64,000 nucleotides of DNA, taken from Bryobacterales bacterium (GTDB lineage Bacteria; Acidobacteriota; Terriglobia; Bryobacterales; UBA6623). The stretch spans positions 2,857,262-2,921,261 of the forward strand of contig OZ252030.1 in NCBI GenBank assembly GCA_965247305.1, written 5' to 3'. Made by a program: the position numbers. Of the stretch, positions 9,001 to 15,000 are shown one piece after another. Each line of letters begins with the position of its first letter. Positions within the stretch are counted from its first letter, which is position 1.

Positions 9001-12000
9001 TCTGGGCCTAGGGGGACTGATTGCCTCGATGATCGGGGCGGCATTGGTCCCGATGAACTAGCGGGGCGTGGCTAGGGCGATAGATGTGAGTCCACCCTGA
9101 CCACGGCAGAGTCTATGCTTGGTGCTATACGGTTTGGCTAGATGCCGTTGGTTCCAGCCTGAGGAGTGCTCTATGAATTCGATTGCGATACGGATCGTGC
9201 TTTGGTTGATCGTTGTCGGGTCGGTCGCCGTGGCGCAGCACGATGCGCCGAACCCCTATGCCGATGGAGAACAGTGGGGCACTCTTCCCGCCGGCAGAAC
9301 TTGGGGATCAACGAGTGGGATCTACCCGCATCGTGATCGCCAAGGTAAGTTCACTGGAAATATTTGGGTATTCGAGCGCTGCGCCAAGGGCTCGTGCCTT
9401 GAAAGCGATCTCGATCCGATTCTGCTCTTTGACCCGACCGGCAAGTTGATTCGCAGCTTCGGGTCTGGGATGTTTGTCTGGCCGCACGGCATCTACGCCG
9501 ATCATCAAGGCAATCTCTGGGTGGCGGACGCGGTTCACACCGACTGTAAGCCGGGCGTAGGAAATGGGAAGGGCCATCAGGTTCACAAGTTCAGTCCTAT
9601 GGGCGAGTTGTTGATGAGCCTTGGCACGAAGGGTGTTGAAGGCGGGGGCGAGGATAAGTTCCGTTGCCCCTCGGACGTCGTGGTCTCGCGGAACGGCGAT
9701 ATTTTTGTAAACGACGGGCACAACCACGGGCACGGCGGCAGTAATCGGCTGGTCAAATTTTCGTCCGACGGCAAGTTCATTGCAGCTTGGGGGCATCACG
9801 GTACGGGACCGCGTGAATTTCAGGGCCTTCACGCACTCGCGATCGACTCCCAAGGGCGACTTTTCATTGGTGATCGCGCCAACCAAAGAATTCAAATTTT
9901 AGATCAGAGTGGAAACCACATCGCGACCTGGAGGCAGTTCGGGTCACCGAGCGGAATTTTTATTGACGAGGACGACACGATTTATGTCGCTGATTCCGAT
10001 TCTGGTTTTGATCCCGAATCAACAGGTAACCCGCGAAACCCAGAATTTCAGCGGGGCATCTACATTGGCAGTGCCCGCGACGGCAAGGTCACAGCGTTTA
10101 TTCCAGACCCCGCGCCTGATCTGAGTAGGGTAACGAGTGGTGCTGAGGGAGTCGCGATGTCGGGCGGGTCGGTCTTCGGTGCCCAAGTTGGCGGTTCTCG
10201 AGGGGTATTGCGCTATTCGGCCGCCCGCTGAACAGCTTGCGGCCGCGACTGTAGTAGACCCATGAGCCGTCGCACTTTTCTGAAATCGCTTTCAGCCGGC
10301 GCCGCGATGGGGTCGGCCGCACGAGCTCAGGCCAACCGGCCGAATATCGTTAGGATTATGGCCGACGACCTGGGGTATGGCGACTTGGGATGCTACGGTC
10401 AGACGAAAATTCGCACGCCGAACATTGACCGACTAGCCGCGGAAGGCATGCGGTTCACCGACGCGTACGCCGGCTCAACAGTTTGCGCGCCTTCACGCTG
10501 CGCGTTGATGACCGGCTTCCACAACGGGCACGGACGCCTGCGCGACAACATTCCCCATGGGGTATTTCTACGCCCTGACGATTTCACCGTCGCCGAACTG
10601 CTCAAGCAAACCGGGTATCAAACCGGCGGGTTTGGCAAGTGGAGTTTGGGGAATCCCGGTTCATGGGGGATTCCGCGCTATCAGGGATTCGATACTTATT
10701 TTGGCCACCTCAATCAAGATCAAGCGCATCAGTATTACCCGGACTATTTGTGGGACGACGATCGCATCATGTTGCTGATGGAAAACCGTGAAGACCAGCA
10801 CAACCAATACGCGGCCGACCTGCTTGCCGACCGGGCAGTGCAGTTCATCGATGACAATCGCGAACGCCCGTTTTTTCTATACTTCCCGACGACGCTGCCT
10901 CATTTTTCGGACTTCACAGAGGGACCCGACAAGTTGATCGTGCCGACCGATGCGCCCTACACCGCCGAAGACTGGCCACAACTGGAGAAAAACTACGCCG
11001 CGATGATCACACGCCTTGATGATCAGGTAGGACGAATTGTAGAGCGACTGCGCGAGCACGGGCTTGAGCAGAACACCGTTATCTTTTTTACTAGCGACAA
11101 CGGCCCTTGGGGCGGGCACGATGTCGACTTTTTCAAGAGCGGTGGGCCTTTTCGCGGCAAGAAGCGCGACGTATACGAGGGCGGAATTCGGATACCGCTA
11201 ATTGCTCGCTGGAAGGGTCGAATCAAACCTGGGACGGAAAGTGATCACGTCTGTGCGTTCTGGGATTTCATGCCAACGGCGGCAGAGTTAGCAGGCTTGC
11301 CCGCGCCTGAATCGACCGATGGAATTTCGTTTGTTCCAGAATTGATGGGTAAGCCGCAAAAGGAGCACGACTACCTGTACTGGGACTACGGACATACTCG
11401 CGGCAACTACATGCAGGCTGTCCGCCAAGGAAATTGGAAGGCGGTTCGCAACGGCCCAGATGGCGCGATAGAGCTATATGATTTGCAGGCGGACCCGGCA
11501 GAGGCGAGCGATGTTGTTTCTAAACACCCGGCGATTGCTCGACGTATAAGCGAGATCATGCTGGAGGCCGTTGTGTCCTCGGTGGACTACCCGGTGAAGC
11601 GCGAATAGGACTTCGCGGGGCCGAAATTTTCGCTCGGTCCGCCGTCAATTTGCCAGGTGGCCGGTGGTAATCTAAAGCATTTTCAGGAATGGGATAGACT
11701 GCTTGCCGCAGCACCAAGCCCGCGAAAATCGGAGGCGCGACTGGAAAGGAGTGCGGTGGCGAAGCAGCTTTCTGGAATACGCTGAGCTAGGTCCTGCTGA
11801 TCATTCCTCAACAGGTCCCAACTCAACTTTCCCAGCTAACCATTCGCCACCGCACTCCTTTACAGTCGGTGCGCCAGGATAAGCCTGGTGGATCTAGTTG
11901 AATGAAAGGAGTTGACCATGGGAATGGTTCGTTCACCCGTGTAGCCGACCCGGCGTTCGTGGGGGGGAACCGCCGCGGGCGAAGCCCGAGAAGGCAAACA

Positions 12001-15000
12001 CGTGAGCCGTAACGAAAGTGAATCGCAGATAGGCCTCGTTAAGGAAGTTGAGAGTGGCCAAGCCGCCGACTAGGGGGAAGCCTGCAACCGTCGGTGAAGC
12101 AGCGAACATCTGCAGCCGGTGGACTCTCCGGGGTAGATGCGGACAGCGCGCCTCGAAAGATCCATCGAGGAACCTTGTGTTGAGAGAGATACGGAGGCCC
12201 GCATGGGCAAGTGAGCCGATCGGAAACGAACGGTTCGCCACCCGGCGCGGGGAAAGCACAACCAGCGCAGGGGCCGGTGCGGGAGTCGGAGGGGCGCATA
12301 GTAGCGACGAAGCTCGGTAATGCGAGTGGAGCGAAGGCCCCCTGGCGCTTTAATGCTGACGGAGTCAGACAAGCATGCTAATTGCGACAGAAGGGAGAGC
12401 CGTTTATGTTCAAAAGATTCCACTTGCTAGCCCGGCGATGCCGGAGAAACTCTCTCGATTGAGACAGAAGCTGGGCCAAAAGGCCAAGCAGCGGTGTCCG
12501 CTGCTGCGCATGCCTGAGGCGAGAGCTTGTTGGAGAGCCGGATGCGGGAAATCCGCAAGTCCGGTTCGATGAGGGGGGAGGTTAAGCCCGCTTGCGGGAC
12601 CCTCCCCTACTCTACCGCCTCCGAATTGCACGGGCTTGGTGCTGGGGCAAGCGGTCTATGCCATTCCTGAAAATCGACCCACTAGCGACAGGACCACCGT
12701 GAGCAACACGCTAGTGACGATGCACGTGACAATCGGAAAGTACGCCGTCGTCCATTGCCGCGATAGACGACGTCTCCGGGCAATCTTCCCAGCTTCGCTA
12801 AGCCAACGTAGATCAGTAGCCAGCCGACATTCATCAAGCGGTCAGATACGGCCGGACGAACTCAAGCGTCCGTTTGAGCGATTCCTTTGCGTGGTCGTCG
12901 AGCTCGCGGGCGTTCGGGCTGCGGACTTTCCAGTTCGGAAAGACGCCGCGTAAGTGCAGAACGTAAGCGAGCGCCGGCAAACCGAGTGCGCTGACCTCGG
13001 TCACAAACAGCAGTACTTTCGAAAACATGTCGATCGATTCGTTTCGGTGCCCGGCGTGCCAGAGTTCCCAGACGCGGACGTAGAGGTCAACCCACGGCAC
13101 CGCAGGCATACTGCCGGCCGAGCCACGCGCCATCTCGTCGATCAGTGTGCGGCCGTGGCCTCCGGTGAATGGGATCGGCTTATTTTTTGCCTTCACGTCT
13201 TGAAATTCGGTGATGCGGCTGAGGGTGTGACCGGCTTCGTCCTTCACGAAATAAAGGTTCGGGATTTCGCTTGTCAGCTTCACCACGAAGTCCATGCTCA
13301 TGTTGCCGATTGCTTGCATGAACATCGGTAGCGGACAAGCGGCGGCGACTTGGCGGTAATAGTCCTCGATCGCGTCAAGATCGAACTCCCGCTGGTCGGG
13401 CTTTCGCGGCGGCAGGGCGATGATCCCGTCCGGCCCGATTTTTTTGGCGTGCCGGGCATACTCCAGCGCCTTCTCGGTGTTCTCCGCCTGAACTCCGATG
13501 ACGACTTTCGGCTTAAGCCCTTTCGAACTCTTGACGATCGTCTCCGCACCCTCGATGCGTTCGTCGAACGTCAACAATGCGTACTCACTGGCGAGCTGGG
13601 GCCAGACGATGCCGTGCGCGCCGGTGCGGCCGACGAATCGCACTTCCTTGGCAAGCGTCGCCATATCAACCCCGTCGTCGTCGCCGTACGGGGTGGTAAC
13701 GATCGGGAAAATACCGCGAAAGCCGTCGGGGCCCGCCGCCCCAAGCCGCCGCGCCGCGAACAACGCCGCGGGCGCGGCCAAGAACGAACGGCGCGAGAGA
13801 CTAAGCTGTGCTGCTGCCGGCATGTTTGCGTACCATCTCCTCAGTGATATCGGTGCCGAAGCCAGGTTTGTCTTTCGGGTAGTAGAAGCCGTCCTTAAAT
13901 GGCGAGGACATCGCCAGCATTAAATCGGTGGCGTCGTCGCCGGTGCCGAAGCTCTCAGCCAATGGCGCGTCGGCGGTCAAGACGATTGCCATGCCGTACA
14001 AACTGCTACCTCGATGGGGAATGATCGGCAGGCCGCGATCGGCCCCCATCTCCGCGATCTTTCGGAGCGCAGTCACGCCGCCGCACCAACTGACGTCGGG
14101 CTGCAAAATCTCCGTCGCGCGGTGATGCAGCAGCATCTGATAGCCGTACTGCGTATATTCATGTTCGCCGCTGACGATCATGGTGCTGTCGATTTCGTTG
14201 ATCAGCCGCTCATAGCCAAGTATGTTGTCGGCTGACAACGGCTCTTCAATGAAATACAGATTAACCGCTTCGAGCCGCCGTGCCATCTCGATGGTGTACT
14301 TCTCGTCGTTCCATTTGGTGCCGCAATCGATCATCAGCGTGCGGTCGGCGCTGATCGTTTCTCGCGCCTCCCTTAGCCGATCCACGGTTCGCTGCATTCC
14401 TGCCTTGCCTTGCAGTACTCCATCTCGAATGCCCGTCTTGAAATATTCGAACCCCAATTCGAGCCCGACTGTGAAGTCTGAATTGGTGATGTAAGCCGGC
14501 ACTTTTTCTTTGTGCGTGCCGCCGAGTAACTGGTAGACAGGTTGCTCGGCGTATTTTCCGACGATGTCCCAGAGGGCGTTGTCGACGCCGCTTAGCGCCA
14601 TCACAAACACACCGCGGCGGCCGTAGAGTCCAGATGACGTGTACATCTGGTCCCACAGAAGTTCAACGTTGAGGGGATTGGTGCCGACTAATAGATGACT
14701 CAGGTGCCCGTGAATGATTTCAGCCGCGACGCCGCCACCGCCACCGAATCCGTAGCCGGTGATGCCCTGATTGGTTTTGATGACGACGATCATTGCGCTC
14801 GCGAGTTGCGAGAAGGGTCCCGAATAGAACCAGCGAGCGGGGTCGAAGTCGCCCTTGAATTGGGGCAATCGTCCTTGGTTGCTGCGCGACCAAAGCTTGA
14901 CCGGAATGCACTCGACGGAGGTGATCCGTAGCTTGCCTTTGGTCTGCGGAAAGGCTGGCGCGGGCATTAGCGCCGCGGCTGACAAGCCGGTAAGAAAGGT

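Follow-up and report, generated by a model that had tools for sequence, protein, structure and literature searches.

A 747-nt ORF-less group II intron sits at one fixed base within a palindromic repeat of a Bryobacterales genome (G000), in which eleven more such mini introns occupy equally exact repeat positions. This raises the question of whether these introns reached their sites by retrohoming or were multiplied as DNA together with the repeats. The window is the whole 64,000-nt stretch of DNA that was analysed, and its relevant features are as follows (window coordinates; strand where one applies).

11673..12681: host MITE-A with IS630-type ends, ~294 bp when empty (MITE comparison; right end approximate)
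11729..11868: REP doublet, made up of the left arm at 11729-11763, the loop and the 5′ portion of the right arm (DNA fold, z -6.3)
11858..11868, plus strand: IBS2/IBS1, the 5′ exon end, within the right REP arm (exon comparison, clade alignment)
11869..12615, plus strand: ORF-less group II intron, A type, copy A3w, 747 nt (sequence ends, RF00029 match, copy comparison)
12040..12044, plus strand: predicted EBS2 (UAAGG), facing CTTTA at 11858-11862, one of the pairs being a wobble (clade alignment, read by eye)
12067..12071, plus strand: EBS1 (CGACU), pairing with IBS1 AGTCG at 11864-11868 (placed via the clade alignment)
12438..12508, plus strand: RT N-terminal remnant and ORF-deletion junction common to 12/12 minis (copy alignment)
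12533..12615, plus strand: domains V-VI with AGC triad, 5-nt loop, AA bulge (12557-12558) and predicted branch A at -7 (RF00029, fold, relatives)
12616..12624, plus strand: 3′ exon CGCCTCCGA, the remainder of the right arm (junction comparison)
19560..20114, minus strand: RAYT flanked by the REP that a class-C-like intron targets (NF047646, 82.7 bits against a cut-off of 80)
31285..31689, minus strand: Y1 transposase-like ORF adjoining an arm A variant (profile scan, score under the RAYT cut-off)
63093..63386: empty MITE-A, coordinates approximate

The intron in the window and its host repeat

Judged from its sequence, the element at 11869-12615 is a real ORF-less group II intron, whose splicing is predicted. 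It starts with GTGCG and ends with CTCTAC, its DV/DVI matches Rfam RF00029 with 53.7 bits, and the fold contains the catalytic triad, the bulged A of DVI and a DV loop of sequence GAAAU, and the ORF-deletion junction folds as a short hairpin. The minis in general have GUGYG...AY ends and exons that rejoin exactly to the empty site, with the B type starting GAGUG. The initial annotation had pointed to this start, but it is no peculiarity, GAG starts being ordinary in this clade and occurring in 20 of 71 relatives (GAGUG in 9, GAGCG in 11).

The A minis insert at CAGTCG^CGCCTC and the B minis at CGCGCG^CGGCTC, which are related REP arms, each within a MITE. MITE-A shares its termini with an IS630 element and is missing at orthologous sites of the sister genome G001, as an IS630-derived MITE would be; the absence of the empty copy at 63093-63386 from its orthologous G001 site shows that MITE-A moves. 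Around A3w, the MITE has the structure Y-end...Y-end, a recombinant junction. Variants of both arms adjoin Y1 transposases, the one scanned being that beside arm A listed above. None of 34 TIR pairs spanning up to 3 kb contained an autonomous partner of MITE-B; in those of 2.1-2.3 kb, the cargo is an unrelated IS.

Intron lineages and their repeat targets

Six A minis (734-748 nt; contig positions 1742275, 2749150, 2869130, 3031541, 3151366 and 6090560) and six B minis (759-778 nt; 3360273, 3615996, 4948413, 5088956, 5530788 and 8525721) were found where the initial annotation had placed them, and their junctions are exact against 164 empty A arms (at most 5 mismatches) and 72 empty B arms (at most 4). 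Two further introns described there were also recovered. A 2-kb intron in the terminal repeat of the high-copy MITE-C, reported in 8 copies, gave 8 DV matches and nine 3′ junctions, the MITE itself numbering 189 full copies, mostly of 180-181 bp, rather than 190 of 185 bp. For the class-C-like intron, five 5′ junctions lie at the GTCGAC REP and a sixth at a degenerate site, with 92 empty REP targets, and the RAYT bordered by this REP is the one in the window. Missed in that annotation were four parents of the minis in G000 that still bear the ORF, though in broken form (4512960, 5794186, 5832164 and 2548564). The single ORF-deletion junction of the minis occurs at none of the scanned G001 loci, which cover its 10 strong DV matches. 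The A and B minis constitute one lineage, and therefore the supposed four independent lineages are three, on four targets. Mosaics were observed as well, copy F2 carrying an A-type EBS1 in a B target, copy F3 containing a patch of B sequence, and the base at exon position +3 being exchanged both ways. Neither the intron lineage nor the two targets were found in G002-G005, and a plasmid search returned no relative above 60%.

The EBS1 loops of A and B match their own exon ends, as initially proposed, and EBS2, read by eye, likewise fits its own target. Across the clade, EBS1/IBS1 pairing averages 4.52 Watson-Crick pairs of 5, compared with 3.04 after permutation (maximum 3.41 in 2000 permutations, n=58), and an inverted partner matching at least 11/14 lies upstream in 22/54 exons versus 1.7% of controls, or in 10/22 clusters at 80% RT identity. 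Since relatives with an intact RT insert into palindromic-repeat arms with covarying EBS1 and IBS1, repeat targeting is, on these sequence comparisons, real at the clade level. The idea that host repeats serve as renewable homing sites is supported as regards EBS retargeting to repeat arms, in the clade and historically for A and B, but not as regards homing of the present mini copies.

The mini lineage is likely related to class F. Its relatives encode an RT-X ORF of ~430 aa without En (P0001, 429 aa, matches TIGR04416 over residues 35-404), EBS1 and EBS2 lie in DId (the former by permutation, the latter by eye), and the 5-nt DV loop is a class F feature according to PMC3753933, though class E has it too. 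The parent RT pieces align over residues 1-429. In agreement with the initial annotation, no intact RT of the lineage was found, the cognate RT being broken in every copy in G000 and G001 (assembly 95% complete). The broken RT core varies with a skew toward synonymous changes (23 synonymous, 19 non-synonymous), which suggests that an intact helper RT probably survived until fairly recently.

Flank alleles, synteny and multiplication of the short copies

The explanation that we favour, and consider reasonably probable, is that RT-bearing ancestors retrohomed into REP-type arms, and that the 12 short copies multiplied mainly as DNA, through carriage in MITEs and ectopic recombination. Flank alleles bear directly on this. 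Over the 80 nt that precede the intron, A2, A3w and A6 show 0-1 differences, whereas 65 empty arms in the same orientation have a median of 9. The allele GCTAGGTCC occurs in 5/8 filled arms and in 0/164 empty arms; it is also present in the empty orthologous MITE of G001, which counts against the favoured explanation. A Y-end allele is found at 4/5 filled left Y ends versus 4/77 others, and three B flank alleles occur in 3/7, 3/7 and 2/7 filled sites, each in 0/72 empty ones. Same-end MITEs account for 4/6 typed filled A sites versus 1/116 empty arms, and for 2/5 typed filled B sites versus 0/34. The differing orientations and hairpin alleles, previously read as independent homing, are explained by crossovers and flank hitch-hiking, and carriage in a moving MITE or gene conversion, named at the outset as the alternative that would refute homing, is for the most part what is observed. 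Filled sites are not alone in undergoing crossovers, since empty MITE-B copies also lose their target duplications (24/34 TIR pairs retain them). Flanks could also have been made uniform by crossover or conversion that followed homing, and the data therefore do not reveal the way in which each site was originally filled.

All 12 minis were then compared with G001, the empty-site synteny control being one informative site. Eight of the 12 are partners in reciprocal rearrangements: A3w and A6 are reciprocal junctions, the window copy and the 6.09 Mb copy bounding a 3.2-Mb inversion; A2 and A4 are likewise reciprocal; B2, B3 and B4 form a three-way cycle; and the left side of A5 joins the right side of F3. 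B1 and B6 are insertions of a whole MITE-B with its intron, flanked by target duplications, at sites where G001 is missing the repeat. A1 and B5 are split relative to G001, with no partner found. A 747-nt skip seems to derive not from the present site but from an empty MITE at another place, which has diverged by 14 differences. The GC-skew profile after undoing the inversions was not clean, and uninformative.

It is very improbable that the reciprocal junctions merely reflect wrong joins made during assembly where cassettes are near-identical. Inversions between two copies and three-way swaps are the textbook form of an ambiguous join, only 2 positions distinguish A3w from A6, and no read or contig spanning a whole cassette was found. 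However, A2 and A4 differ at 54 positions and B2, B3 and B4 at 11-19, the single contig contains 70 copies of a longer, near-identical IS, and, judging from positions, undoing the A3w/A6 inversion would make A2 and A4 inverted partners; flank hitch-hiking and the B1 and B6 insertions hold regardless.

Trans retrohoming of the minis by an intact cognate RT, since lost or outside the assembly, with later recombination only reshuffling the copies, is unlikely, although it would accommodate the exact junctions, the EBS1/EBS2 fit, the largely conserved ribozyme (117/145 consensus pairs; relatives 115-140), the synonymous skew of the RT and the several different REP contexts occupied by the G001 copies. 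It is opposed by the private alleles on both flanks, by the clean filling of a shared empty repeat in 0/12 minis relative to G001, and by F2, whose EBS1 does not fit its target. Furthermore, the identity of the intact G000 RTs with the parent RT pieces is only ~34-44%, whereas the RT proteins of Thermosynechococcus elongatus, the precedent for such mobilisation, are described as 84-100% alike (PMC2882425).

Homing that needs neither protein nor reverse transcription was also weighed. The ribozyme would cut or reverse-splice at a REP arm, and the host would repair the arm by recombination from an intron-bearing copy, with flank co-conversion and frequent crossover. Such a process would account at once for the exact site, for co-conversion on both sides, for the surplus of crossovers where sites are filled and for the presence of 12 copies. 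In G001, the final 12-13 bases of the exon seem to be carried along into REP contexts that diverge, and a yeast mitochondrial intron reportedly has an RT-independent homing route. We nevertheless regard directed homing of this RT-free type as very improbable, and protein-free attack by the ribozyme on the arm as equally so: purifying selection on conserved ribozyme columns is not significant (A, p 0.36; B, p 0.15), every mini has AA as its DV bulge where 44/52 relatives have AC, and passive recombination plus MITE carriage are enough. If such homing did operate, the mini would be an RNA-guided gene drive and chromosome shuffler. As to strand, the minis lean to the lagging-template orientation (7-9/12), a non-significant point against the favoured explanation; an apparent bias of A and B (13/16) was rejected, as it was obtained with the element included in the counting interval and fell to 8-11/16, not significant, when it was excluded, with 13-17/20 for other introns and 32-40/70 for an IS control.

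Collectively, the favoured DNA-level multiplication would have proceeded as follows. An RT-bearing intron of a clade that inserts in right palindrome arms would have been retargeted through EBS1 and EBS2 to two REP arms, as covariation suggests, and its RT gene is broken in all copies found in both genomes. One deletion, recorded in the common junction, would have produced the mini form, most likely once the G001 lineage had split off, and its transfer between ribozymes of A and B type would be due to recombination. Flanks and synteny suggest some three founder sites, from which further copies would have arisen by MITE transposition with the intron and by gene conversion, and the near-identical ~1-kb cassettes would then have acted as crossover points. 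Taken alone, many copies of an ORF-less intron at one precise site, even with an EBS that matches, are thus no evidence of retrohoming, for which flank alleles and a sister genome are needed. The case mapped here is one in which RT-dead introns persist as MITE cargo and mark at least four rearrangements, within a clade documented to retarget EBS1/EBS2 among palindromic repeats of many bacteria; no paper on this class of targets was found in the literature.

Comparison with known systems

Introns that lack an ORF, and introns that home into the inverted repeats of ISs, have been published before. The class F/group IIF introns Ge.ur.I1, So.us.I2 and Pe.th.I2 (PMC3753933, PMC3552965) share with this clade an En-less RT of ~430 aa, an intron of ~1.93-2.0 kb, a 5-nt DV loop, EBS1 plus EBS2 and non-coding sites, a likeness by features. 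In the Ge.ur.I1-1 exon, IBS1 recurs 9 and 19 nt upstream, resembling the tandem-unit targets of this clade; the description in PMC3753933 does not call it a repeat. RmInt2 in the inverted repeats of ISRm17 (PMC4615759) resembles A and B in using both arms of a multicopy inverted repeat, with two sites per element, but is described as an intact, active class D intron at IS termini, whereas the A and B targets are internal REP doublets in MITEs. Insertion behind hairpins, as reported for class C (IIC) introns (PMC4424553), fits the fourth intron, which lies 4 nt after the GTCGAC hairpin; A and B, in contrast, insert within the arm, using EBS1 plus EBS2. Intron/IS tandems were predicted to promote rearrangements, and ectopic recombination between group II intron copies was described, in PMC3522654; here, individual reciprocal breakpoints are mapped against a sister genome.

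A close parallel is provided by the TeI3 ORF-less introns of T. elongatus, in which intact, closely related RTs mobilise the minis, and which likewise have a single ORF deletion in all short copies, DIV ORF remnants and families with differing EBS (PMC2882425). The present minis have the single common deletion, but an intact closely related RT was not found (assembly 95% complete), and their flank alleles and synteny do not indicate independent insertions with unrelated flanks. Unlike TeI3, as far as that system is described, the cognate RTs found here are all broken, the targets are REP arms in MITEs, and the flanks point to spread at the DNA level.

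Copies in the host genome and the deletion common to A and B

Using genome BLAST, six A and six B copies of the ORF-less mini-introns (A1–A6 in MITE-A, B1–B6 in MITE-B) were returned, agreeing with the initial annotation in number and position, together with four further, longer copies of the same lineage (F1–F4) absent from its list:

Window 11869-12615: mini A3w, group II intron of 747 nt (GTGCG...CTCTAC; RF00029, 53.7 bits)
Contig C1, 4512960: F1, longer copy of the mini lineage
Contig C1, 5794186: F2, longer copy
Contig C1, 5832164: F3, longer copy
Contig C1, 2548564: F4, longer copy, 3′-truncated

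The reverse transcriptase (RT) frames of F1–F4 are broken, and the intact RTs of the host genome, which belong to three other lineages at 1, 3 and 2 copies, are about 34-44% identical to these parent pieces. F4 begins with GAGTG directly in the MITE-A left arm, probably through a deletion that fused arm and intron at short homology rather than as a splice junction. On recount, the numbers for MITE-C (189), the 2-kb intron in its terminal repeat, the class-C-like intron at the GTCGAC REP and the RAYT beside it were borne out.

Three side observations were made on contig C1. A third ORF-less intron, L006, which is 677 nt long and belongs to the class-C-like lineage of minis, lies in the GTCGAC REP at 1743228-1743904, about 200 bp behind mini A1, and the sister genome G001 also has a match to it. 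Two intact-RT introns of different lineages stand head to tail at 4477279-4481292, abutting at 4479275. The RT at 3080060-3080623 had no BLAST match to intron RTs and is retron-like by eye.

A and B had been taken for separate lineages, a view that did not hold: the minis are unlike in DI-DII, and have the 3′ half and the DIV deletion junction in common. The junction occurs 12 times in the host genome and in none of the scanned loci of G001, a scan that takes in its 10 strong DV matches. G001 is of the same genus, with flanks about 94% identical; copies of both types occur there in the same repeats and at identical bases, every ORF being broken. Since the scanned G001 loci lack the junction, while G001 has both types at the same bases, we infer that the ORF deletion moved between two older ribozyme types through recombination.

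Palindrome targeting in the wider clade

Genome and metagenome scans gave a clade set of 107 loci, with the 5′ end located in 71 (GTGCG 47, GAGCG 11, GAGTG 9, GTGTG 4) and the 3′ end in 52. EBS1 and IBS1, the pairing intron and 5′-exon segments, covary, with 4.52 of 5 Watson-Crick pairs vs 3.04 when permuted (n=58 unique pairs, A3w and B3 included). Among 54 exons of at least 150 nt, 22 had an upstream inverted partner at ≥11/14 (control, 1.7% of 1178 pseudo-junctions) and 42 repeated IBS1 7-11 nt upstream at ≥4/5 (control, 9.7%); collapsed to 80% RT clusters, the figures were 10/22 and 17/22, respectively. In one deltaproteobacterial genome, one intact intron is present seven times at full length and once more as a 5′ junction, each time in unique flanks, the outcome that retrohoming gives:

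L018-L021, L042, L047, L050, L055: the eight deltaproteobacterial insertions, in tandem-unit palindromes

The covariation, the exon repeats and these uniquely flanked copies together demonstrate that palindromic-repeat targeting is a habit of the clade. The parent RT falls inside the clade, with weak local support, in a tree that has no labelled reference sequences. Class F membership is likely from intron and RT features and a tandem IBS1 like that described for the Ge.ur.I1-1 exon (PMC3753933).

Flanks and private alleles of the filled repeats

Each of the 12 minis was placed on the G001 sequence. Two G001 sites, both without the intron, are joined reciprocally at A3w and A6, which amounts to a 3.2-Mb inversion; the left-flank joint of G001 type is also present in contigs from two other studies. 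A2 and A4 form a second reciprocal pair, with G001 sites devoid of MITE-A; B2, B3 and B4 form a cycle of joined flanks, and A5-left is joined to F3-right. B1 and B6 are insertions of the whole cassette with target duplications, and A1, B5 and F1 have flanks split in G001, with no partner identified. In this comparison, 0 of the 12 minis cleanly fill a repeat that both genomes share and G001 has empty.

The filled repeats also carry private alleles. The allele GCTAGGTCC is found at 5/8 filled A sites vs 0/164 empty arms, an allele of the Y end (one MITE-A end type) at 4/5 filled left Y ends vs 4/77 others, and three B alleles each in 2-3 of 7 filled vs 0/72 empty. Over 80 upstream bases, A2, A3w and A6 differ at 0-1 (median among empty arms, 9). 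The ends are unlike in 115/116 typed empty MITE-A arms and alike in 4/6 typed filled sites. The 2-kb intron likewise has a private exon allele, with the intron directly behind it in 8/8 exact occurrences, and four copies have a long upstream IS block in common. Mosaic copies confirm conversion. Our reading is that ancestors probably homed into REP arms and that today's minis probably spread mainly as DNA, by recombination and as MITE cargo.

Some points weigh against DNA-level spread. Earlier homing can be hidden by later recombination; synteny was informative as a control at one empty site, and no record spans a cassette. Empty MITE-B copies probably recombine too, as 10/34 of their TIR pairs lack a target duplication. 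The strand bias typical of homing is kept in other introns and is indeterminate in the minis. A helper RT may have existed in the recent past, given the synonymous excess in RT core variation (23 to 19). The mini ribozyme sits within the clade range, at its lower end: it deviates at 13 of 176 conserved columns (range in relatives, 0-22), keeps 117/145 pairs and has an AA bulge found in 1/52 relatives. An RT-independent route driven by the ribozyme itself is an unlikely alternative.

Host repeats and published systems

MITE-A is about 294 bp, with a REP doublet at its centre, and its termini resemble the ends of an IS630 element present in the host genome; MITE-B is bounded by terminal repeats of its own and duplicates 6-7 bp of its target. 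Their arms are related and hold the intron at the homologous base (^), CAGTCG^CGCCTC in A and CGCGCG^CGGCTC in B, and Y1 transposase genes adjoin arm variants. The composite element at window 15705-16752 (1048 bp) has the ends of MITE-B and a target duplication of 6 bp; inside it are an inner segment present in duplicate, two pieces that carry REPs, and some unrelated sequence. The mobile-element load of the genome is very high, with one IS at 70 copies and several MITE families with IS630-type ends; its GC-skew profile is not clean.

A literature search of titles and abstract starts, covering few subscription journals, returned no paper on REP- or MITE-arm targeting. The separate elements are published: ORF-less introns arising from one deletion (PMC2882425), introns that home into the inverted repeats of an IS (PMC4615759), class C insertion directed by hairpins (PMC4424553) and rearrangement promoted by introns (PMC3522654).
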